In this document: one piece after another, positions 669 through 29,344 of the stretch
How the letters are laid out: each line of letters opens with the position of its first letter
Numbering within the stretch: position 1 is the stretch's first letter
Program-made: the position numbers and the translations under genes
Assembly (NCBI GenBank): GCA_964485795.1
Contig: CAZAJQ010000006.1
Location: 9,716 to 73,715 of the forward strand
DNA: 64,000 nucleotides
Direction of reading: 5' to 3'
Source: an uncultured Gammaproteobacteria bacterium
GTDB taxonomy: Bacteria; Patescibacteriota; Patescibacteriia; VMEV01; CAZAJQ01
The notes under the pieces: generated by a model
Databases searched by the model: none
Seen by the model: only the letters and a program-made list of their open reading frames with translations
Told to the model about the DNA's origin: nothing

Positions 669-1337
669 TCATGATGACGGCCGTGCAAGGTGCGAATTAA
701 AACGATTTCGTGCGATTTCCAATAATTGTTTCACCTCATCATCTTCCACCTGCCGGAAATCCTTGTAAAAAGCGCCTACGGAACCAAACAGCCGAGGAGC
801 GTCAAGAAAAATGAGCTCGTCGCACAACGATTGCATTTCGGAAACCAGTTCGTGCGGCAAGACGGGAACGGCGACGACGATCTTTTTTGCACCGTGTCGC
901 TTCGCATACGCTATCGCGGCCTTCATGGTGTATCCCGTGGCAATGCCGTCGTCAACGAGTATGACCGCCGAATCCTTCAAGGGATACGATTTTCTTCCGG
1001 CTCTCAGGAGATGTTCTTTTGCCATGATTTTTGAGAGAATTTCTTTTTGTTTTTGGACGATATATTCTTTTGAAATGCCATACTCGGCAATCATGGATTC
1101 ATTCAGCATGGCGCAATCTTTCGAAGCGATGGCTCCGATCGCGAGCTCCTCATTTCCCGGGGCTGGTATTTTTTTACTGACGATGATATCCAAAGGAGCC
1201 GACAGATATTCCGATATTTCAAACGCCGGCACCACGCCTCCTCGGGGCAATCCGATGATAAGCGCATCCTTGCCTCGATAGAGAAGAAGTTTTTTGGCCA
1301 GCACATCCCCGGCTTCCTTTCGATCATGAAACATCAT
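669..1337 (-). CDS. phosphoribosyltransferase-domain protein (COG1926-like predicted PRTase)
   Basis: 222-aa ORF. It has a PRTase-fold PRPP-binding loop ILVDDGIATGYTMKAAI and an N-terminal LIIGLPRGGVVPAFEIS segment. It lies directly upstream of prs on the same strand. Confidence 0.65.
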   Translation of the reverse strand: MMFHDRKEAGDVLAKKLLLYRGKDALIIGLPRGGVVPAFEISEYLSAPLDIIVSKKIPAPGNEELAIGAIASKDCAMLNESMIAEYGISKEYIVQKQKEILSKIMAKEHLLRAGRKSYPLKDSAVILVDDGIATGYTMKAAIAYAKRHGAKKIVVAVPVLPHELVSEMQSLCDELIFLDAPRLFGSVGAFYKDFRQVEDDEVKQLLEIARNRFNSHLARPSS

Positions 1338-1486
1338 AAGTTTTCTTTAATTGCTTTCATTATATGACAAGAACTGCTGATGCGACAGATGGGCGATGCG
1401 AACTCTTGTAAAATTCCATCTCTCGCGTTTTCTATCAAATTTTATTTGCCTTTGACGGTGCTTTTTGTCAGACTTATGAAGTTCTA

Positions 1487-1514
1487 TTGCAATTTCATTC
1501 AATCGGTTCATAAT
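1487..1514 (+). promoter_or_regulatory. candidate sigma70-type promoter for tRNA-Arg (TTGCAA-16-CATAAT)
   Basis: TTGCAA at 1487-1492 and CATAAT at 1509-1514 with a 16-nt spacer. The tRNA 5' end at 1523 is 8 nt downstream of the -10 hexamer. Confidence 0.4.
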
Positions 1515-1522
1515 CGACTCAT

Positions 1523-1597
1523 GTCCCTATAGTTTAATGGATAAAACACAGGTTTCCGAAGCCTGCGATGGAGGTTCGATTCCCCCTGGGGACACCA
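1523..1597 (+). tRNA. tRNA-Arg (anticodon CCG), CCA encoded
   Basis: Cloverleaf read by eye. Acceptor stem GTCCCTA/TGGGGAC. D-arm GTTT-AATGGATA-AAAC. Anticodon stem CAGGT/GCCTG with loop TTCCGAA, giving anticodon CCG. T-arm GGAGG-TTCGATT-CCCCC with one A.C mismatch. Discriminator A followed by CCA. Confidence 0.8.
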
Positions 1598-1640
1598 ATC
1601 ATTTTCATACATTTCCTCCAAAATAATATTCATGTCAATA

Positions 1641-1676
1641 AAAAAAAACAGGAAAGATCGTATTCTTCCCTGTTTG
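1641..1676 (-). terminator. intrinsic terminator downstream of the 765-aa ORF
   Basis: On the minus strand: ACAGGGAAGA-ATACGA-TCTTTCCTGT hairpin followed by a run of nine T. It sits immediately 3' of the stop at 1683. Confidence 0.5.
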
Positions 1677-1682
1677 GTATGG

Positions 1683-3980
1683 TCAATAAATATCTTTTCT
1701 ATCTTCCACATAAAAATAGAAATGATCCCCCTCAAGTTTGAAAAGGATTCGAAGCGGATCGCAGCGTAACCTCCACAACCCGCGGGTTTTCCCGATAAGT
1801 CCATTTACTTTTCGCTGGAGTCGCATCCTGTCGCTGGGTGTGGCCAAGAGATATCCGGCGATTTTTTCCAATATCTTCTCACCAGAAATGGAAAATCCGA
1901 ATGGCTCAAAATACACTGCGAATGCTTCACAGGTTGGTTCAATGATTTCAAAAGCGCTGAAATCTTTACCTTTGCTGATCTCGAGCGTATACACTACCGG
2001 TGATACCTCTACAGCATCGATGACCGGCTTATCCTTCTCATCCCATTCACGCCCTTCGTATTTCCGCTTTCTCCTGCCGGTTTGAAAATCAGATTTTTTT
2101 TGTCCGTCCTTTCTTTCCAAGAGCATATCTCTCACAGTGAGGCAGACAAGCTCGAGAAACAGTGCACGAAAATTATCGCTCACTTTTTCTCGCCAGCTCA
2201 CTTCCACAAGTTTTCTTGCAAGCTGCTCTTCGAAATCGCTTCCATGAAATGTTTTTCCTCCGGATGAAAAAAAATTTTCTTCGCATTGGGCAATCTTCTT
2301 GCATTGTGAAAACATTTTCACTATTTTACTGCCCAAGGTAAAATACTTCTTCCCAAACGCATCGTTGATCTCTTTCCTATCGGCTTCAATCAGACTGAAA
2401 AAACGATCTTGCGATTTTTCAAAAGCTCTTTCCTTGTCCTTCATTGAAACATCAACGAGCATTTGTGAGGCTCGAAAAATCAAATATTCAAAAATCTCGG
2501 TGAGATCGTTTACGTTCGTATAACGACGCTCATGTCCAAAAAACTCGGAAATCATGGCGGACTCTTTTTCCGGATATTTGCTGATATAGTGGCGCAAATC
2601 CGCTAATGAGCTCAAGGCATTTTCTTTCTCCTTGATTGCCATAGTTCGCCGCTCTTTTTCGAGTTCATTTCGCCGGCTGACATCGTCTTTGCGTCCCAGG
2701 AGCGAACTGAATTTCCCCAGCTTTGGAGCGATTTCCAATGCTCTCTCATAGAGTTTTTTCCCGACAAGGAGCGCAAAAAGGCAATCCATCTCATGCTCGT
2801 GCCGCTTATTGGGCTGAATCATGACTATCTTCTCAACGGGAAGTTTTTGAAATTTTCCCGCCCATTCATAAAGGCTTTGTGATTCGTCCTTCAGTAATTG
2901 GGCGAAGCCCAGTGACGCAAATTCCTCTCGGAATTTGAGGTATTCGATAACTTCAGACACATCATGTCTTCTCCCTTCATACATGCTATCCAAAGCTTCA
3001 ACATATTTTTTTCTCCTTGCCTCCAGCTCTAGGTCGTGTCGTTTTATCACCGCTGATTCAAGCTCATCATATCGCTCCCAATAAAGGAAATAGATGACTT
3101 GATCGATGAGTTTTTCGTATGATTCCTTCTCTTGAGACCGCTCCGTTGCCTCATCATAATAGGTAACCGTTTTTTGCAGCGTCTCAAAATCGTCGTCATA
3201 CGCCGCCGTCATGATTTTCAGCAGCACCTTGAGCAGGTAGGACGGGCACATGACAGACAGATTCACCGCCTTGATCAAGGCATGCATGGTACCGTCGTCC
3301 AAAAAACTCAACAAATCCGGAATGTCTTTCACACCTTCGAAAAATCGACATTTCATCTTCCATTGAGCCACGATGCGCCGAAGCAAGCCCTCATTTTCCA
3401 TCAATTCACCGCAATATTCCAGAAAAGTATCCATGTCATTGTTATCGGTTTTCGATGCATTGACTCGAAAATCAAATAACTTGCAAATGCTGTTCCATTC
3501 CCCCAGCCAAAATGAAAAGCACATTGCGCATGTTCTTTTTTCAAGCATTATATTCTCTCTCCCACATGTGGAAATATAATCTGCCATGACCATCTGAAAT
3601 TCTTCCTTCATGCCATAACAAAAATAGGTGAATAATCCTTCTTGCTGATAGTGAATGGAGCTTGGATTACATTTTCGCGCAGCGGCGACCAGTGCCAGCC
3701 TCATCTCTTTTTTTTCACTTTCTTTCACTATGACCTGTTCATCCATAAGCAAAGAGAAAGCATTATCAAACATGAGCTCGGTCGGAGGTGGCGACAATTC
3801 TATCGCCTTCATATAGCATCTCAAAGCGCTCACATACTTTCTCTTCAGAAAATTGAGATCTCCGGCGAGATGCATGGGATTGATCGTCCCGTCAATTTTC
3901 AGTTTCACTTTTTTCATGATACGTTCCTTTTTAAACTGTAACGAAACATTCCAAAACAACAATTTTTTATTGTAACCCAT
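1683..3980 (-). CDS. large hypothetical protein (up to 765 aa; likely ATG at 3917 giving MKKVKLKID...) with a C-terminal RelE/ParE-fold toxin-like domain
   Basis: Uninterrupted 2.3-kb ORF. The N-terminal 650 aa are mostly helical and include a TPR-like start (YVSALRCYMKAIELSP). The last 100 aa, VYTLEISKGKDF...GLWRLRCDPLRILFKLEGDHFYFYVEDRKDIY, align with the RelE/ParE consensus (…LYRIRVGDYRIIYEIDDENKIIYILKIGHRKDVY), including the conserved Arg residues and terminal Tyr. Confidence 0.6.
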   Translation of the reverse strand: MGYNKKLLFWNVSLQFKKERIMKKVKLKIDGTINPMHLAGDLNFLKRKYVSALRCYMKAIELSPPPTELMFDNAFSLLMDEQVIVKESEKKEMRLALVAAARKCNPSSIHYQQEGLFTYFCYGMKEEFQMVMADYISTCGRENIMLEKRTCAMCFSFWLGEWNSICKLFDFRVNASKTDNNDMDTFLEYCGELMENEGLLRRIVAQWKMKCRFFEGVKDIPDLLSFLDDGTMHALIKAVNLSVMCPSYLLKVLLKIMTAAYDDDFETLQKTVTYYDEATERSQEKESYEKLIDQVIYFLYWERYDELESAVIKRHDLELEARRKKYVEALDSMYEGRRHDVSEVIEYLKFREEFASLGFAQLLKDESQSLYEWAGKFQKLPVEKIVMIQPNKRHEHEMDCLFALLVGKKLYERALEIAPKLGKFSSLLGRKDDVSRRNELEKERRTMAIKEKENALSSLADLRHYISKYPEKESAMISEFFGHERRYTNVNDLTEIFEYLIFRASQMLVDVSMKDKERAFEKSQDRFFSLIEADRKEINDAFGKKYFTLGSKIVKMFSQCKKIAQCEENFFSSGGKTFHGSDFEEQLARKLVEVSWREKVSDNFRALFLELVCLTVRDMLLERKDGQKKSDFQTGRRKRKYEGREWDEKDKPVIDAVEVSPVVYTLEISKGKDFSAFEIIEPTCEAFAVYFEPFGFSISGEKILEKIAGYLLATPSDRMRLQRKVNGLIGKTRGLWRLRCDPLRILFKLEGDHFYFYVEDRKDIY

Positions 3981-4089
3981 TCAATAATTATTGTCAAAAT
4001 ATCTTTTTATTATGGACTATCATTAGCGATAACAAAAAAATCTCCATAAAGAGATTTTTTTGCGAGTGATTTTAAAAAAGAATGGATTT

Positions 4090-4329
4090 TTATTTTTTCA
4101 TCATGTCCATCCCGGAACACATCATGCAATCCTTTTTATGCGTTACGAGAATATACAGAGCCGAAAGACCGACAGCCGCATAAATGACACGCGCAACCGT
4201 TGAGCTCATGCCTCCGAGAAGAGACGCTACGAGGTCGTATTGAAAAAATCCGACCAATCCCCAGTTAAGTCCTCCGATAAGAAGCAGGAGGAAAGCAAGC
4301 ATATGGAGTCCGCTTTTGTTTTGGGACAT
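4090..4329 (-). CDS. DUF378-family small membrane protein
   Basis: 79 aa with two predicted TM helices. The motif LLLLIGGLNWGLVGFFQYDLVASLLGG matches the DUF378 signature (INWGLVG…FDLVA…GG). Confidence 0.55.
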   Translation of the reverse strand: MSQNKSGLHMLAFLLLLIGGLNWGLVGFFQYDLVASLLGGMSSTVARVIYAAVGLSALYILVTHKKDCMMCSGMDMMKK

Positions 4330-4814
4330 AAATGAAATAAATTAAGAATAAAAAAGCTTAGAGATGATGAACTTTATTTATAATAGCATCATCGCTACGG
4401 ATATCATAATTTTTGTCAAGGATTTTAAAGAATCAGCATGGCATCCCCAAACGAGTAGAGATGGTATCTCTCCGCAATAGCAAATCGGTCATCAATATAT
4501 CGACGATTCGAAAATCACATGAGGAACGAAAAAGAATATCCTCCTTGAGCAGATCTATCGCGCAACGACGATTCTTCGAGGGAAAGAGTATCATCATTGA
4601 TATCGACCATCAATGCATTTGACGCAGCATCACCCCATTTGATACATTTTCTGATAAAGAAGGCTCACTTCTTCTTTTTTAATTGATCCAATATTTCGTC
4701 ATGCTACATTTTTTCTGAGATGACTGCAGAAAACAAAAAAAATCTGTAACCATTCCATGTCCATGCAAAATTTATTCTCAGTGAACCGTTTTTGAGCAAT
4801 AATTTTCTCTCTAT

Positions 4815-4885
4815 TCCGGGATCGTCTAATGGTAGGACGCCTGACTCTGAATCAGGTAATCGGGGTTCGAATCCCTGTCCCGGAG
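4815..4885 (+). tRNA. tRNA-Gln (anticodon CUG), CCA not encoded
   Basis: Acceptor stem TCCGGGA/TCCCGGA. D-arm GTCT-AATGGTA-GGAC. Anticodon stem CCTGA/TCAGG with loop CTCTGAA, giving anticodon CUG. T-arm CGGGG-TTCGAAT-CCCTG. Discriminator G. Confidence 0.8.
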
Positions 4886-5042
4886 TGAAGTAGAGCCCCT
4901 ACGGGGCACACTTCACTCCATGGAGGGTGTTCGTCTGAGTTACGCGAAGACGAGCTCTCCTCCATGCGAGCGAGGCGGAACTTTAATATCCATCAAACAA
5001 TATTCAATCATTCTCAAAAAATATTCCTTCATGACCTCCTTT

Positions 5043-6779
5043 TCAAACCACCACTTCACCCTCAAAAACATCGAGGATGTTTTGTAAGCCGCTGTCTTTT
5101 GGTTCTGCCGGTAAATCGTTGATTCCACTCACTTCTTTGTGTTTTTCCGATTCGATCGATAACGTGGGATCGAGAACGCATTCAAACCGAAATTTTTTTC
5201 CGGAAACGTCGGTAAATATATCCTCCATAATCCTCATATTCTGCATTTTCATGATCAATTCCTGATGCAGGGGAAATTTGACTCCCAAAGTCCCTTTTCC
5301 ATCATTCGCGTTTAAAAGCAACGTGTTTTTTAAGACTATCGCCAAAGACGGCTGTTTTTTTGCAATCTCCGATTTTGCCATATTCCAAAAACCTCGCGCT
5401 TCTAGAAGACTCATGCTTTCGCCGACATTGGAAACATCCCGTTTATCGGTTTCAATCGTCGCTTCGGGACGACTCTGAACGTGATTTCCGCGTTTGAGCG
5501 TATGCTTGACCATATCTTTTGACGCATTGTTTGCGAAAATCACGGCGTCAGAATGAGCCTTGCCTGTGGCGCTTTCATACACGCTCCCTTGAGGGCGTGG
5601 AGGTCTCTGCGAGTGCTCGGCCCATTCATCGGAGCGAACGATTTTTACTTCCGAAAATGCGGTCATATCATTAGCATTTGCCGCATTCCCTTCATAGCAT
5701 ATTTCAATAACCGCCAATTCCAAAGGTAATTGCACCATTTCCAAATTTTTGAGCTGCAATTTTTTTTCCAATAAAACATCCAACATACGTTTCAGCTGTC
5801 TCATGTCAGCGGCGGTAATCAGTTCTTTCAGACGCCCCTCATCCTCCTTTGAAACGATTTCATCAAAAGAGGTCAACGAACCGTCTACCTTTGCGAGAAG
5901 CATTTTTCGAACGATTTCCAGCGCATCACCGGTAAACGCCTCCAGAGAAACGCCCTCATAGACCATATCCTGCAGCATTTTCAAAGCCGCCGATGATTTT
6001 TTCCCGATGAGCAGATCCAAAAATGCGATCGCGAGCTTCATGTGCGTCTTTGGCAAAACCAGCTCGGCCAATTCCATGGTGATCTCTCCTTCGCCAAGTG
6101 ACATGACCTGGCTCAAACGACTGACAGCGTCGCGCAAAAAACCGCCGGACACCGAAGCGATATGCCTCAAGACATCGTCGCTCACCGCGACGTCTTCATT
6201 GGTGGCGATGAATTTCAAGCGCTCGTAGATTTCTTGGCTGTCGATTTTTTTAAAATCAAATCGCTGCGCCCGCGAGACGATCGTGTCCGGCAATTTATGT
6301 ATCTCCGTGGTGGCGAGAATGAAAACGACATGCGACGGCGGCTCTTCGAGCGTTTTCAGAAGCGCGTTAAACGATGACAAGGAGAGCATATGCACTTCAT
6401 CCAGGATGAATATCTTGTACTTGCCGGCCTGACCCGCGGTACGAGCATTGGCGATGATATTTTGACGGATATTCTCCACGCCCGTATGAGAGGCGGCGTC
6501 CACCTCGATCACATCCATGGATCGCTGTTCCATGATGGCCATACATGATTCGCAGGCATTGCATGGCTCGGATTGGCCTTCTTTGCGACAATCGCAATTG
6601 AGCGCCTTGCTCATGATGCGCGCCAAGGTCGTCTTGCCTATTCCCCTGGGACCGCAAAAAATATAGGCGTGCGCGATTTTTCCATTGGCAATCTCGTTTT
6701 GCAACGTAAGTTTGATGGGATTTTGCCCGGTCACTTCTGCAAAACTTTTGGGACGATACAAAAAATTGATGTTTTTCAT
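5043..6779 (-). CDS. dnaX: DNA polymerase III subunit gamma/tau
   Basis: 578 aa. Walker A GPRGIGKTT. Zinc-module cysteines CDCRKEGQSEPCNACESC. The clamp-loader box FILDEVHMLS and the sensor motif TIVSRAQRF are present. Confidence 0.9.
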   Translation of the reverse strand: MKNINFLYRPKSFAEVTGQNPIKLTLQNEIANGKIAHAYIFCGPRGIGKTTLARIMSKALNCDCRKEGQSEPCNACESCMAIMEQRSMDVIEVDAASHTGVENIRQNIIANARTAGQAGKYKIFILDEVHMLSLSSFNALLKTLEEPPSHVVFILATTEIHKLPDTIVSRAQRFDFKKIDSQEIYERLKFIATNEDVAVSDDVLRHIASVSGGFLRDAVSRLSQVMSLGEGEITMELAELVLPKTHMKLAIAFLDLLIGKKSSAALKMLQDMVYEGVSLEAFTGDALEIVRKMLLAKVDGSLTSFDEIVSKEDEGRLKELITAADMRQLKRMLDVLLEKKLQLKNLEMVQLPLELAVIEICYEGNAANANDMTAFSEVKIVRSDEWAEHSQRPPRPQGSVYESATGKAHSDAVIFANNASKDMVKHTLKRGNHVQSRPEATIETDKRDVSNVGESMSLLEARGFWNMAKSEIAKKQPSLAIVLKNTLLLNANDGKGTLGVKFPLHQELIMKMQNMRIMEDIFTDVSGKKFRFECVLDPTLSIESEKHKEVSGINDLPAEPKDSGLQNILDVFEGEVVV

Positions 6780-6897: not shown

Positions 6898-7461
6898 TTA
6901 CAGACCAAGTTCAGCTTCGGCGTCAATGGGTTTGCTGATGATATTTTCCACGGCCGCCCATACGCATCCTCGTTCGCGAGGTACAAGGATCACCACTTCA
7001 TCACCGGGTTTTCCACGAAAATACGTGATGCTGGCCAAAAGCACCCGATACACGGACTTTCCCACGATCACATGATATTCACCGGTCTCTTCATCCCGTG
7101 CGAGCATTCCTCGCAGTCTATCACGGTCAATGGGTTTGATCTGCTTATAGATGAACGACCCGTCCATTCCGATGGACAGCTTGAGACGATCCCCCTCGAC
7201 GAGTTTTGATTTTGACGCATAATTCGCGGACATCGAGTATTCCTTGCCATCGTCTCCGATCATTTTCGTCCCGTCAAAAATACCCTCAATCACCGACGCA
7301 TCGCTTTTCCCGAGATCCTTGTCGTCGATCGTCAGGGACAGCTTGGATACATCCATATCCTCATGGCTCAGGTCGCTGGCAAGGAGCTTTCTCACCATCG
7401 CCACTTCGTTTTCGATATTTTCAACGATTTTTAGAGCGATTTTTATTTTTTCTTGGTTCAT
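6898..7461 (-). CDS. hypothetical protein
   Basis: 187-aa ORF in a clean intergenic context with a terminator downstream. No family recognised by eye. Confidence 0.45.
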   Translation of the reverse strand: MNQEKIKIALKIVENIENEVAMVRKLLASDLSHEDMDVSKLSLTIDDKDLGKSDASVIEGIFDGTKMIGDDGKEYSMSANYASKSKLVEGDRLKLSIGMDGSFIYKQIKPIDRDRLRGMLARDEETGEYHVIVGKSVYRVLLASITYFRGKPGDEVVILVPRERGCVWAAVENIISKPIDAEAELGL

Positions 7462-12990: not shown

Positions 12991-15597
12991 TTATAAACTT
13001 TTCTCGGACAAATCCTTGATGCCTTGCAAATCCGAGTTTCCCAGCTGGGTTCTTTCCAGAATCTCGTTGCTCACAAGTCTTTTATCTTTTCCGTACTTCA
13101 ATCGCGATAATTGTTTGATCGCGGAAATTATGTCGGACGGGTTGCCTCCTTCGAGGTTGTAGGTTTTCATTTTAAAAGCCTTGGACGACGTATTGTCGAT
13201 GAGAAGCTTCACATAGGCCGCATGCTTTTCGATGTTGACGAGATCATATTCGTTGAACACCGGCGCATATTCCTTTGCCAGCACTTCGGCATCGTCAACT
13301 CCGATTTTGAATGAAACCAAGGTTCCGGCATTGCCGAAAATCGCGTCGCGAATACTTGTGTCGCGATTGCCCTTGAGCAGCTGATTGACATACTGATGCG
13401 CTAAAATCAGGTTCAGCCCATACTTTCTCGCTTCTGAAAGGATGATGGCGATACTGTCCGTGATGAAATTCTGAAATTCGTCGATATAGAGATAAAAATC
13501 TTTTCTTGATTCTTTCGCCATATCGGCTCGCGTCATGGCAGCCATTTGAAGCTTGGCGACGATGATCAGACCCAGCAAATTACTGTTGACCTCCCCCACC
13601 TTGCCTTTCGCGAGGTTCACCAGCAGAATTTTTTGCTCATCCATGATCTCGCGGAAATCAAATCCGGATTTCGGCTGACCGATGATATTGCGCATCATCT
13701 CATTTTCCACGAATCTTCCCACTTTGGATATCAGATAGCCCAGCATCTCGGATTTATGAAAATCCGAGGTTTTCGCCATTTCCTTTTCCCAAAACGCGCG
13801 CACGACCGGATCTTTCACCTTGGCAAGCTTGAACTTTTGATACGACGGATCCGAAAACATTCGCGGTATGTCGGCGATGGTACCCGGATATTCCTTGTCT
13901 TCCATGAGCGTGAGCATCACGTTTCTCATATTATGCTCAAACATGGGACCGATCATCTCCGGCGGAAACAGCTTATAGAAAATCGCGATCATCTCCTGCA
14001 CCGCAAAATCCTTTTGATCGTCGGTCTTGTACTCGAGCATATTGAGTCCGACGGGTCGATCCACGTCCGAAGGATCAAAATACACCACGTCTTCATAGCG
14101 CTCTTTGGGTACAAAACGCAAAACGTCTTCCACGAGATCTCCATGCGGATCTATGACGCATACCCCCATACCTGCGGCAATGTCCTGTTTCGCGCAATTC
14201 GCGAGCAAATATGATTTTCCGACGCCTGATTTTCCGATGATATACATGTGCCTCCTGCGATCTTCGGATTTTAGAAAAATTCTGGTTTTCACCCCGCGAA
14301 ATTCGTTGTATCCCAAAAGCAGTCCTTCTTTGGGAATATTCGTCGGCGCGGAAGCGTTTTTCGCCAACAGCCAACGAATATTGGGAGTCTCGTTTTCAGG
14401 CAACGGAAAATGAAAAACACTGCTCATTTCCTCAGTATTGAGAATCACGGCCTTGCCTTCGTCAAAGTTTCTATAAATGAAATCGGTCACAATATCCTGC
14501 TTTCGCAATGAAGGATCATAACGTTTCAATGAATTTCCGTATTCGTATAGATTATGCTGATGAAACGTATTGACGATATTTTCAAGATAAATTTTCGCGG
14601 TTTCGGCGATTTGCGATGACACCACAATACGGATATTACATTCCAGCCCCGCTTTGCTCGATTTTTCCTCCAATCCTTTGATCATTTCTTCTTCCATGCT
14701 TGACAGTCGTCTATCTTGCTCCGCTTGCGCCGGAGTCACTTCTTTTTTGGCAGCGCCGAAAACGTTTTCATAAAACCCTTCCCCGATGTCTTTCACGAAG
14801 GCAATCATAAACCGTCCCTTCACTTCATTGACAGCCTCGTCCAGAGACTTGCCCTTGGCCATACGCGTGGCGATGCCGTGTCCGAAGCGATGCCATCCCT
14901 TTGCCGGTCGAGCGACGATCTGGATCGCGGCTCCGTCATGTTCCGCAAGCTTGCTCAAAACATTGGTCAGGGCATTGAGCGGATCGGTATCCATTTTCTT
15001 GTACGACTTGATGGGAAAATAAAAATCCCTAGTAAAGACGATATTCGTTCCCAAAATCGTCCCTTGAGGCGTAAAGATATTATAATCTTCGACTTCTTCG
15101 ATATTTGCCGTAGGAAATTGCGCGTGGATCTGATGTTCCAAAAACCGCTCGAGATACTGGGGCACGGCAATATAAAAAGAAATAAGTCCCTCATCGGCCA
15201 CGATTTCAAAGGAAATATGATCCTCCCGTCCGAATAAAAATGCCAAAAACCCGCTTTGCGGCTTCATACCACCGATGGTGGAAAAAAAGGTTTCCATGGC
15301 TCCGATTTTTTCTTGTGTTTCTTGCACGCTCTTTGTCTTGGTAAATTCTTCTTTGCTTTTGGCGGATGCTTCTTTGGGCAAGGTTACGAGAAGCACTTTT
15401 TTTTCAAACGTTTTTGGAACAATATGCGCCTTGCGGACGAAAAAACGAAGAATATAGAGCATGATCACGGCAACGGCGAAAATAAGGACAGCTCGGAGCG
15501 CATCCTCAAGAAAAGGAATTTCAAAAAAGGATGCGGCGTCAGATGAAAGGCCTTGTTGCGATTCGTCCAATGACAGGAGGGTTTGAAAAAAAGACAT
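12991..15597 (-). CDS. TrwB/TraG/VirD4-family (type IV coupling-protein-like) ATPase with one N-terminal TM helix and a 440-aa N-terminal extension
   Basis: Walker A IIGKSGVGKS. Motifs match TrwB at CVIDPHGDL (vvDPnGD), YLYIDEFQNF (LFIDELasL, Walker B) and ARKYGLNLILAHQYVNQL (GRKaGlrvvaglQs). An N-terminal TM helix AVLIFAVAVIMLYILRFFV is predicted. Confidence 0.6.
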   Translation of the reverse strand: MSFFQTLLSLDESQQGLSSDAASFFEIPFLEDALRAVLIFAVAVIMLYILRFFVRKAHIVPKTFEKKVLLVTLPKEASAKSKEEFTKTKSVQETQEKIGAMETFFSTIGGMKPQSGFLAFLFGREDHISFEIVADEGLISFYIAVPQYLERFLEHQIHAQFPTANIEEVEDYNIFTPQGTILGTNIVFTRDFYFPIKSYKKMDTDPLNALTNVLSKLAEHDGAAIQIVARPAKGWHRFGHGIATRMAKGKSLDEAVNEVKGRFMIAFVKDIGEGFYENVFGAAKKEVTPAQAEQDRRLSSMEEEMIKGLEEKSSKAGLECNIRIVVSSQIAETAKIYLENIVNTFHQHNLYEYGNSLKRYDPSLRKQDIVTDFIYRNFDEGKAVILNTEEMSSVFHFPLPENETPNIRWLLAKNASAPTNIPKEGLLLGYNEFRGVKTRIFLKSEDRRRHMYIIGKSGVGKSYLLANCAKQDIAAGMGVCVIDPHGDLVEDVLRFVPKERYEDVVYFDPSDVDRPVGLNMLEYKTDDQKDFAVQEMIAIFYKLFPPEMIGPMFEHNMRNVMLTLMEDKEYPGTIADIPRMFSDPSYQKFKLAKVKDPVVRAFWEKEMAKTSDFHKSEMLGYLISKVGRFVENEMMRNIIGQPKSGFDFREIMDEQKILLVNLAKGKVGEVNSNLLGLIIVAKLQMAAMTRADMAKESRKDFYLYIDEFQNFITDSIAIILSEARKYGLNLILAHQYVNQLLKGNRDTSIRDAIFGNAGTLVSFKIGVDDAEVLAKEYAPVFNEYDLVNIEKHAAYVKLLIDNTSSKAFKMKTYNLEGGNPSDIISAIKQLSRLKYGKDKRLVSNEILERTQLGNSDLQGIKDLSEKSL

Positions 15598-15630: not shown

Positions 15631-16116
15631 TCACAAAGACTTTTGATCGATGCGCTTTTTCATGTGAAGAATTTTATCCGTCATGATTTTTGCTTCTTGT
15701 TCGAGGAAAAATCGATTGACGCCCGGGATCAAAATCAGCCAATTTCTGACCATGGCAAATACCGTTTTTGCGGAAATCTTTGCCTTATGAATCAGCCTAT
15801 CGAGTTTATTCGCCAAGTCCTCTCCGGCAGACTTGAAAAGGGCTCTTCTTTCCGAGGGCAATGCCTCAAATATCGGACCAAGCTCATCTTCAAGGATGGA
15901 TTCGATTTCAAGTACCTGCGCGCTTTTTTGGGGTGCCGTGAGCTTGGGCTTTGTTCTCAACCTCGGAAAGGAAATCTGCTGTTTGACGGCAAGGGCATCA
16001 TCCGATGAAATCCGCTCCACTCTCGGCGTCCTGACTTCCTCGGGCACGTATTCGCGCTCGAGTGCATCTTGAGACTTTTTTTCTGAAGAACTTTCAAGTT
16101 CTGCATTGGGAACCAT
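15631..16116 (-). CDS. hypothetical protein (charged N-terminus, C-terminal hydrophobic segment)
   Basis: 161-aa ORF directly downstream of the coupling-ATPase gene on the same strand. No family recognised. Confidence 0.4.
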   Translation of the reverse strand: MVPNAELESSSEKKSQDALEREYVPEEVRTPRVERISSDDALAVKQQISFPRLRTKPKLTAPQKSAQVLEIESILEDELGPIFEALPSERRALFKSAGEDLANKLDRLIHKAKISAKTVFAMVRNWLILIPGVNRFFLEQEAKIMTDKILHMKKRIDQKSL

Positions 16117-16294: not shown

Positions 16295-16837
16295 TCAATA
16301 ATAATCAGAATCTCTCTTCCTCCCTCGGGAAATCGCCATGACAAAGATCGGCGCCACGATCCAGACGAAGCGAGCATTGTCTCCGATAAAACCCTTTTGA
16401 ATCATGGGTGATAAAGCATTGGTCATATGAGGCGGCAAAAATGAAAGGGTCACGCTCAGAAGCAATCCGACATGCAAAACGCTAAATGCGAGAACCTGCC
16501 ACCATGCTCCGGTATAATCTGATCCGCCCAATGTATTCGCGAGCGCGCTGCGTGACAAGAAAAAAAACAAGAGCATGAAAATGCCAACGAAAGATGTAAT
16601 CTTAATGTACGAATCCTGAAAACGCACGCCGATACCTTCAAAATCATTGATAAACGGCGCGTAATTCACAACGGCCAAAGCCATGTAAATACCGACCAAA
16701 ATGATGAGAATACGGTCGCGTCCCAGTGAAAGTCCGTAGATAAACGACGACACGACAAAAAAAAGGATGATAAAGAGATCCCAGCTTGGCGTCGTCCAGT
16801 CAAACCCTGATACAACGTCAATGATATTTTGAAGCAT
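16295..16837 (-). CDS. hypothetical polytopic membrane protein
   Basis: 180 aa with 5-6 predicted hydrophobic helices. Same strand as the ATPase gene. Confidence 0.45.
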   Translation of the reverse strand: MLQNIIDVVSGFDWTTPSWDLFIILFFVVSSFIYGLSLGRDRILIILVGIYMALAVVNYAPFINDFEGIGVRFQDSYIKITSFVGIFMLLFFFLSRSALANTLGGSDYTGAWWQVLAFSVLHVGLLLSVTLSFLPPHMTNALSPMIQKGFIGDNARFVWIVAPIFVMAISRGRKRDSDYY

Positions 16838-29272: not shown

Positions 29273-29344
29273 TACCCCTACGGGGAATTGAACCCCGGTT
29301 TCCAGGTTGAGAACCTAGCGTCCTAACCACTAGACGATAAGGGC
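29273..29344 (-). tRNA. tRNA-Glu (anticodon CUC), CCA not encoded
   Basis: Minus strand reads GCCCTTATCGTCTAGTGGTTAGGACGCTAGGTTCTCAACCTGGAAACCGGGGTTCAATTCCCCGTAGGGGTA. The anticodon loop is TTCTCAA. The T-arm is CGGGG-TTCAATT-CCCCG. The acceptor stem has two G.U pairs. The architecture parallels E. coli tRNA-Glu. Confidence 0.72.

Follow-up and report, generated by a model that had tools for sequence, protein, structure and literature searches.

A RelE/ParE-fold domain fused to a long TPR-like helical protein in Patescibacteria-like bacteria: a putative self-inhibited growth-arrest or defence protein

INTRODUCTION

RelE toxins are normally small and are controlled by a separately encoded antitoxin, and a free RelE that lacks its inhibitor is expected to harm the cell that produces it. 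The classical toxins are stand-alone proteins of about 90 amino acids, encoded in a two-gene operon with their antitoxin, whereas the protein described here has 744 amino acids and is the product of a monocistronic gene with no antitoxin gene. Its gene occupies positions 1683-3917 (minus strand, stop codon included) of a 64,000-nucleotide stretch of contig CAZAJQ010000006.1, hereafter called the window, and its carrier is an uncultivated groundwater bacterium. The analysis reported below suggests that this protein, which ends in a RelE/ParE-fold domain, is probably a self-inhibited growth-arrest or defence protein. Residue numbers refer throughout to the 744-amino-acid form.

Several described systems come close to such an arrangement. 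Cami1 (CARF-RelE), an ancillary effector of type III CRISPR systems, is a documented fusion of a sensor to RelE (PMC11229360), and the window protein is like it in joining a RelE-type domain to a putative regulatory part within one chain. It differs from Cami1 in that it has no CARF match and carries instead a tetratricopeptide repeat (TPR)-like solenoid of about 640 amino acids with no known ligand; no CRISPR or cas genes are found among the annotated neighbours in the window. Fused toxin-antitoxin proteins such as CapRel are analogous to the model that we propose, with a different regulatory domain. The survey that Gerdes (2025, PMC11980606) recently compiled lists 195 mono-genes for fused toxin-antitoxin proteins, along with several multidomain RelE/ParE proteins, and leaves out many other multidomain ones that had no identifiable antitoxin or too few members; TPR goes unmentioned in it. 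The catalogued fusions resemble the window protein in that a toxin domain and its presumed inhibitor share one polypeptide, but they carry a recognisable antitoxin domain (ParD, YefM, HigA, YiaG, BrnA or MqsA), and none is detectable in the window protein (PMC11980606). The window protein thus resembles these systems in outline, yet it is a member of none of them except the RelE/ParE superfamily.

RESULTS

The RelE/ParE-fold (BECR) domain comprises residues 642-744 (1686-1994, minus strand), that is, the C-terminal 14% of the protein. Several comparisons point to it. When a five-sequence family alignment of the C-terminus was compared by hhalign with 12 genuine PF05016 archaeal RelE proteins, the two matched with a probability of 80.5-85% (E 1.3e-5 to 6e-6) over 75 columns that cover RelE positions 5-84, and the score of 35.2 stands against 11.2 ± 2.5 (maximum 23.5) for 200 column-shuffled RelE templates and 11.4 for the reversed template. 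A profile search of the PDB with the same family alignment ranked PfiT, a ParE-family toxin, first and Methanocaldococcus jannaschii RelE3 third, both weakly (E 0.34 and 1.3). The PHROG "RelE-like toxin" and Pfam ParE_toxin profiles match individual members of the family at E 0.01-0.07, and the best relative reaches E 0.0091 against ParE_toxin. All these weak matches lie at the extreme C-terminus and in register, those to PHROG and Pfam reach the end of the profile, and the annotation pipeline of the Joint Genome Institute (JGI) independently calls three relatives "mRNA-degrading endonuclease RelE". An AlphaFold2 (AF2) model of the domain (predicted local distance difference test, pLDDT, 65; predicted template modelling score, pTM, 0.53) shows a strand, a helical hairpin and an antiparallel sheet in RelE order. 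The domain thus has the N-terminal strand, helical hairpin and 3-4-stranded antiparallel sheet that define the fold of the superfamily, and both fold and order of secondary structure are like those of the classical type II RelBE toxins and of archaeal RelE (PF05016, e.g. M. jannaschii RelE3). We consider the fold assignment sound and the domain, as judged from these alignments, to belong to the RelE/ParE superfamily in a very diverged form; the first-pass annotation of this DNA, which had read the last ~100 amino acids as a complete RelE/ParE-fold module, is borne out by the match to the PF05016 proteins above the shuffled controls.

The domain is of the RelE type at its putative active site. 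The hhalign register sets WRLRCDPLRI of the window protein opposite YRIRVGNYRI of archaeal RelE and the terminal DRKDIY-stop opposite HRKSIY, with R716, R718, R723, R740 and Y744 at the places of archaeal RelE R55, R57, R62, R80 and Y84. The Y/W-R-x-R...R-I and R-K-x-x-Y motifs of archaeal RelE are thereby in register with the window domain, in which the corresponding stretches are GLWRLRCDPLRILF (1740-1781, minus strand) and DRKDIY-stop (1686-1703, minus strand). We take the same five positions to be K52, K54/R56, R61, R81/R83 and Y87 of Escherichia coli RelE, residues whose catalytic role was established by structural work on RelE bound to the ribosome. All five family members keep R723, R740 and Y744, and the other two catalytic positions are basic in four of the members and in all five, respectively. 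Basic residues and a tyrosine are therefore found in the window domain where E. coli RelE has K52, K54, R61, R81 and Y87, and the earlier remark that the arginines and the terminal tyrosine used by RelE are present holds as Arg/Arg/Arg/Arg/Tyr. ParE gyrase poisons have their fold and their Pfam family in common with this domain, which might on that ground be a ParE-like poison of DNA gyrase instead of an enzyme that cuts mRNA. However, the domain differs from ParE in keeping the RelE-type catalytic positions and in having mRNases as its best structural matches, and we judge the gyrase alternative decidedly unlikely.

When 1.84 billion representative proteins were scanned in full with phmmer, four true relatives emerged (P0003, P0004, P0005 and P0007; E 2e-10 to 4e-5), two of which are truncated and were found in complete form elsewhere (P0022, 824 amino acids; P0023, 740 amino acids). 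All four have a TPR-like solenoid, a basic linker and a RelE domain, with a length of 740-824 amino acids when complete, and conservation within the family is highest over the last ~100 residues. Since the four relatives share this architecture, the fusion is real and a model with an internal start is unsupported. A word-indexed homolog search returned only the query itself when given the full-length protein and nothing when given the C-terminal alignment, missing even the known members; stand-alone RelE genes sought with the family profile yielded nothing useful among ~8,100 open reading frames (ORFs) of the fetched loci; and no relatives were found in viral contigs, a phage genome collection or a plasmid collection. 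As found by these sequence searches, the family is small, rare and known from Patescibacteria-like metagenome contigs, and with it the RelE/ParE superfamily gains, in Patescibacteria, a domain architecture that is both new and very rare.

The protein that carries the domain is probably somewhat shorter than had been thought. The ORF of 765 amino acids that was first noted is present at 1683-3980 (minus strand) in a mechanical ORF scan, but its likely product is the 744-amino-acid protein that begins at ATG 3917. A sigma-70-type promoter (TTGACA-17-TACAAT, 11 of 12 matches) lies at 3997-3969 on the minus strand, and the first ATG, at 3980, falls within its spacer and has no ribosome-binding site, whereas ATG 3917 is preceded at 7 nucleotides by a Shine-Dalgarno-like AAGGAA (3924-3929, minus strand). 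For these reasons, 3917 is probably the real start, as read from the sequence signals; the independent gene call P0001 begins there too, and relatives of 740-824 amino acids have the same layout. The intrinsic terminator that had been reported after the stop codon is indeed there, with a 12-bp stem, a 6-nucleotide loop and a T-run at 1675-1646 (minus strand), starting 8 nucleotides past the stop codon. Flanked by a promoter and a terminator of its own, the large gene thus forms a monocistronic unit.

The body upstream of the domain comprises about 640 amino acids and is predicted by AF2 to be all-helical, in keeping with the earlier description of an in-frame fusion to a long helical region with a TPR-like start, although the TPR matches stay below the Pfam thresholds. 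TPR-like helical repeats cover residues ~17-135 (3513-3869, minus strand), where the protein, like its relatives, gives sub-threshold matches to Pfam TPR_1 and TPR_2 (E 2.7e-4 for TPR_1), and a match to designed TPR proteins (E 5e-4) is obtained with the family profile. Residues 30-150 are the sole part of the full-length AF2 model built with confidence (pLDDT 65-85). Foldseek searches with this low-confidence full-length model retrieved long TPR/HAT solenoids at template modelling (TM) scores of 0.1-0.17, which support the label "alpha-solenoid" only. Further on, the stretch of the body for which phmmer gives an alignment throughout the family is a conserved central all-helical region (residues ~396-604; 2106-2732, minus strand); it has no known domain matches, and we infer that it is a candidate intramolecular inhibitor or partner-binding region. 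It is followed by a Lys/Arg-rich linker at residues 605-630 (GQKKSDFQTGRRKRKYEGREWDEKDK; 2028-2105, minus strand), and a basic linker occurs at the same position in all relatives (e.g., KGKKKKKKRKV in P0003). The 744-amino-acid protein contains no transmembrane segment, and no recognisable antitoxin domain was detected in its body, where searches of Pfam (with all family members) gave sub-threshold TPR matches only and the PDB profile search TPR only.

An in-frame GTG at 1994-1992, exactly at the domain boundary and with GAGG 11 nucleotides upstream, had led to the suggestion of an independent toxin of 102 amino acids. On a fuller version of this idea, one ORF would give a two-protein toxin-antitoxin system, in which initiation at this GTG produces a free toxin of ~103 amino acids and the role of an antitoxin in trans falls to the long form or to the N-terminal portion of it. 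However, the GAGG is weak and its spacing above the usual, none of the four relatives keeps a start codon where the domain begins (EEWQFF, GEWKFF, AGWKFF and ESWTFF), and in each of them the frame, like the basic linker, runs on without a break. The independent toxin has no counterpart in the relatives and the suggestion is not supported; we consider the two-protein version extremely improbable.

Nor does any separate antitoxin appear to accompany the family. No antitoxin-like gene was found upstream or downstream of the large gene in the window or at the four homologous loci (L088, L089, L092 and L093), which have no neighbour in common, and the earlier statement that no antitoxin gene precedes the toxin-like module can accordingly be extended to all of them. 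The adjacent cognate antitoxin that characterises type II toxin-antitoxin operons is thus missing from the window and from the four homologous loci alike.

The four homologous loci are chromosomal and do not share their gene order. The family member lies downstream of uvrA and beside an IS3-family element at L092, near lexA at L088 and on a short contig at L089, and at L093 it is P0022, with tRNA-Leu(TAG) before it and rmuC, L21, recR and dnaB after it. Three side observations concern these surroundings. The IS3-family transposase pair (HTH_Tnp_1 plus rve) lies ~400 nucleotides downstream of the homolog in two metagenome contigs (L092, 7219-8323; L091, 1387-2491), and no other sign of a mobile element was seen close to a member of the family. 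The four loci with informative flanks (the window, L092, L088 and L093) all have a gene for DNA replication or repair only a few genes away from the family member (respectively dnaX; uvrA, immediately upstream; lexA; and rmuC, recR and dnaB), a proximity that may be due to chance in small, gene-dense genomes (rough p ~0.04, with a flexible definition). Lastly, DnaB on the 52.7-kb L093 contig (9491-12154, minus strand) holds an intein with a LAGLIDADG homing-endonuclease domain.

In the window, the large gene is one of two plausible genes, both on the minus strand, that lie between a tRNA-Arg gene and a tRNA-Gln gene, as the ORF scan and Pfam confirm. tRNA-Arg(CCG) (1523-1597, plus strand; Rfam tRNA 62.8 bits) is the left neighbour of the large gene, on the opposite strand, and tRNA-Gln(CTG) (4814-4886, plus strand) closes the interval on the right; both were recovered by ARAGORN and Rfam, which confirms the pair with a slight correction to the ends of the latter. 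The second gene, at 4090-4329 (minus strand), encodes a small DUF378 membrane protein of 79 amino acids (Pfam E 1.4e-21), which we regard as a neighbour outside the module: tblastn found it in none of the other loci, and it is absent from all homologous loci. An A/T-rich hairpin follows it at 4033-4062. The 484 nucleotides between the DUF378 start and tRNA-Gln (4330-4813) form an A/T-rich stretch, unusually long for a compact genome, in which no ORF is convincing and Rfam finds nothing even at E <= 1.

The two tRNA genes had been taken as the borders of a hotspot or islet. We found no integrase ORF in a scan of the window and no tRNA-derived direct repeats in 1300-5100, and there is no sign that tRNA-Arg serves for integration. 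The GC content of the large gene is 0.431, against 0.466 ± 0.025 for 28 window genes, and its GC content at third codon positions (GC3) is 0.479, both within ~1.4 standard deviations. On the dnaX side the interval is flanked by dnaX, three glycosyltransferase genes and a nucleotidyltransferase gene, and on the other side by two phosphoribosyltransferase genes, a gene for a YkuD-domain protein and a histidine kinase gene, all of which are housekeeping genes. Among the four homologous loci, one has a tRNA gene beside the family member. tRNA-Gln(CTG) is present within ~1 kb downstream of dnaX, in either orientation, in several distant Patescibacteria (loci L001, L003, L004, L007, L008 and L010; DnaX 36-46% identical), and because this adjacency recurs in such distant genomes, tRNA-Gln belongs to the core layout. 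These results, together with the lack of a PADLOC, phage or plasmid match, speak against a tRNA-flanked hotspot. The 80 dnaX-anchored loci of other genomes contain no relative of the large gene, of the DUF378 gene or of the phosphoribosyltransferase gene; they come from distant organisms (nearest 41-47% DnaX identity) and are too remote to show whether the interval is variable.

The chromosomal settings bear on the question of whether the RelE fold has been co-opted for a non-toxic purpose, serving as the ribosome- or RNA-binding module of a large regulatory or quality-control scaffold in bacteria with reduced genomes and causing neither growth arrest nor defence. In line with such a scaffold, all five loci are ordinary ones (dnaX; uvrA; lexA; recR, dnaB, rmuC and L21), there is no antitoxin, the composition is native, no defence model is matched, and the Foldseek matches of the body, from a low-confidence model, are TPR/HAT scaffolds. 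On the other hand, the family amounts to five clusters only in 1.84 billion representative proteins and the gene occurs at none of the 80 other dnaX-anchored loci; owing to this rarity and to the lack of a conserved gene order, an accessory gene fits better than a housekeeping one. All five residues at the catalytic positions are moreover retained, which would not be expected of a purely structural remnant. We therefore rate a co-opted scaffold as unlikely and favour the self-inhibited growth-arrest or defence protein.

The attachment of Patescibacteria to host cells raises another alternative, in which the protein would be a delivered effector that passes into the host or into a competing cell and carries RelE at its C-terminus, in the manner of polymorphic toxins. 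Large proteins with a C-terminal BECR-fold warhead are typical of such toxins (PMC3482391). A VirD4/TraG-like coupling ATPase of 868 amino acids (12991-15597, minus strand; TrwB_AAD_bind, DUF87/HerA, TraG-D_C and DUF8128), which may belong to a machinery for type IV secretion or DNA uptake, is encoded 9 kb from the large gene. Yet a signal peptide, a transmembrane segment and any known trafficking domain are all missing from the protein. Nor is there a conserved downstream immunity gene, as the stop codon in the window is followed by the terminator and a tRNA gene, and the genes downstream of the homologs are unrelated to one another or absent. The C-terminal domain is also the most conserved part of the family and not the most variable. 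A delivered effector is on these grounds highly improbable, and we retain the growth-arrest or defence protein that acts in the cell in which it is made.

As to the remaining contents of the window, the coupling ATPase gene is followed by two small ORFs without a family match (15631-16116 and 16295-16837), and an ORF of 187 amino acids with no Pfam match (6898-7461, minus strand), called in both the NCBI and the Logan assemblies, is located between dnaX and the glycosyltransferase genes. A third tRNA gene of the window is found at 29273-29344 (minus strand; Rfam 62.3 bits).

The window DnaX (5043-6779) is encoded identically on NCBI contig JACQLO010000005.1 (assembly GCA_016204025.1), which begins at window position 4360, the window reaching 4.4 kb beyond. 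The public NCBI assembly thus splits the locus between the DUF378 gene and tRNA-Gln, and cluster records place the 765-amino-acid ORF on a different contig of 75 kb. A chimeric join at 4360 was considered and rejected: the independent Logan contig L087 covers window positions 733-4528 at 100% identity and spans this position, and the interval is therefore contiguous across it. The closest DnaX proteins among species representatives belong to Buchananbacteria, Uhrbacteria and "Patescibacteria group" genomes and are just 41-47% identical, from which we conclude that the carrier is a deep-branching member of the Candidate Phyla Radiation without a close sequenced relative. No publication came to light under the assembly and run accessions.

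DISCUSSION

Because the fusion, the basic linker and the catalytic positions are conserved, we think that the RelE-type domain is likely to be functional and controlled within its own chain. The preceding annotation had seen in this gene a sensor or scaffold fused to a RelE effector; since the RelE module is fused in all relatives and no antitoxin gene accompanies it, a sensor or inhibitor joined to a RelE effector is a reasonable model, for which Cami1 and the fused toxin-antitoxin proteins provide precedents. The protein would be a soluble cytoplasmic one of 744 amino acids, composed of a ~640-amino-acid TPR-like alpha-solenoid, a Lys/Arg-rich linker and a complete, diverged RelE-type domain. 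This domain would act as an mRNA endonuclease that depends on the ribosome, entering its A site and cutting mRNA, and the helical body would replace the antitoxin by keeping the domain inactive in the same chain. A trigger would then free the domain and translation would be arrested; candidate triggers are a foreign or stress-related protein that binds the TPR surface and a cleavage at the basic linker. The outcome would be a single-chain abortive-infection or growth-arrest module, which might serve phage defence, stress-induced dormancy or some other purpose. In this full form, that of a self-inhibited single-chain putative mRNA interferase released by ligand binding to the TPR surface or by cleavage of the linker, we hold the proposal to be evenly poised.

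Several results weigh against it. At the level of the domain, the score against Pfam ParE_toxin is 12.8 bits (E 0.19), under the cut-off of 23, and the NCBIfam search gave no match; the profile searches by which the C-terminus had been meant to be checked are in this respect divided, since hhalign places the domain in the superfamily while the curated models do not reach it. The AF2 model of the domain is of moderate confidence only, and Foldseek found no significant match to it (best E 0.035), although the ranking agrees with RelE. The KDLK motif, conserved in helix 1 of archaeal RelE, is missing from the window domain in the hhalign register. At the level of the whole protein, the full-length AF2 model has a pLDDT of 47 and offers no view of the body contacting or occluding the RelE face. 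As regards a role in defence, PADLOC-DB 2.0 contains no family that matches the full protein or the C-terminal domain at E <= 1, and the gene shows no defence island, no foreign composition and no mobile-element marks.

The first of these points could be taken to mean that the resemblance to RelE is convergent or the chance similarity of a small alpha/beta domain. All single-sequence and hidden Markov model searches of the C-terminus (Pfam, NCBIfam, PADLOC, PHROGs and PDB sequences) gave sub-threshold matches only, every single-sequence or HMM-to-sequence score being below threshold, Foldseek was not significant, and an alignment of only five sequences limits both model and profile. The hhalign score, by contrast, exceeds the maximum of the 200 shuffled templates, and we regard a chance resemblance as very unlikely. 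A homologous RelE-type domain held in check by its own chain remains our preferred reading. The case shows that RelE domains which are very diverged and form part of large proteins escape the curated thresholds.

Nothing in this finding departs from the known logic of toxin-effector fusions, and the family is the kind of multidomain RelE/ParE protein that lies outside the survey of Gerdes (2025). A bolder reading, which we put forward as possible but rather doubtful, is that it represents an undescribed single-protein immune or growth-arrest system of Patescibacteria-like bacteria, in which the TPR solenoid would directly sense a phage or host-cell protein and unleash the putative RelE RNase with no need of an antitoxin gene; a variant with delivery of the protein into the bacterium on which these epibionts live is more speculative. 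Should the domain be active, the protein would join CARF-RelE as a further example of a translation-arrest warhead mounted on a sensor domain. The defences of Patescibacteria are poorly understood, and the protein would then also be one of very few candidates for an effector of stress or immunity known from them.

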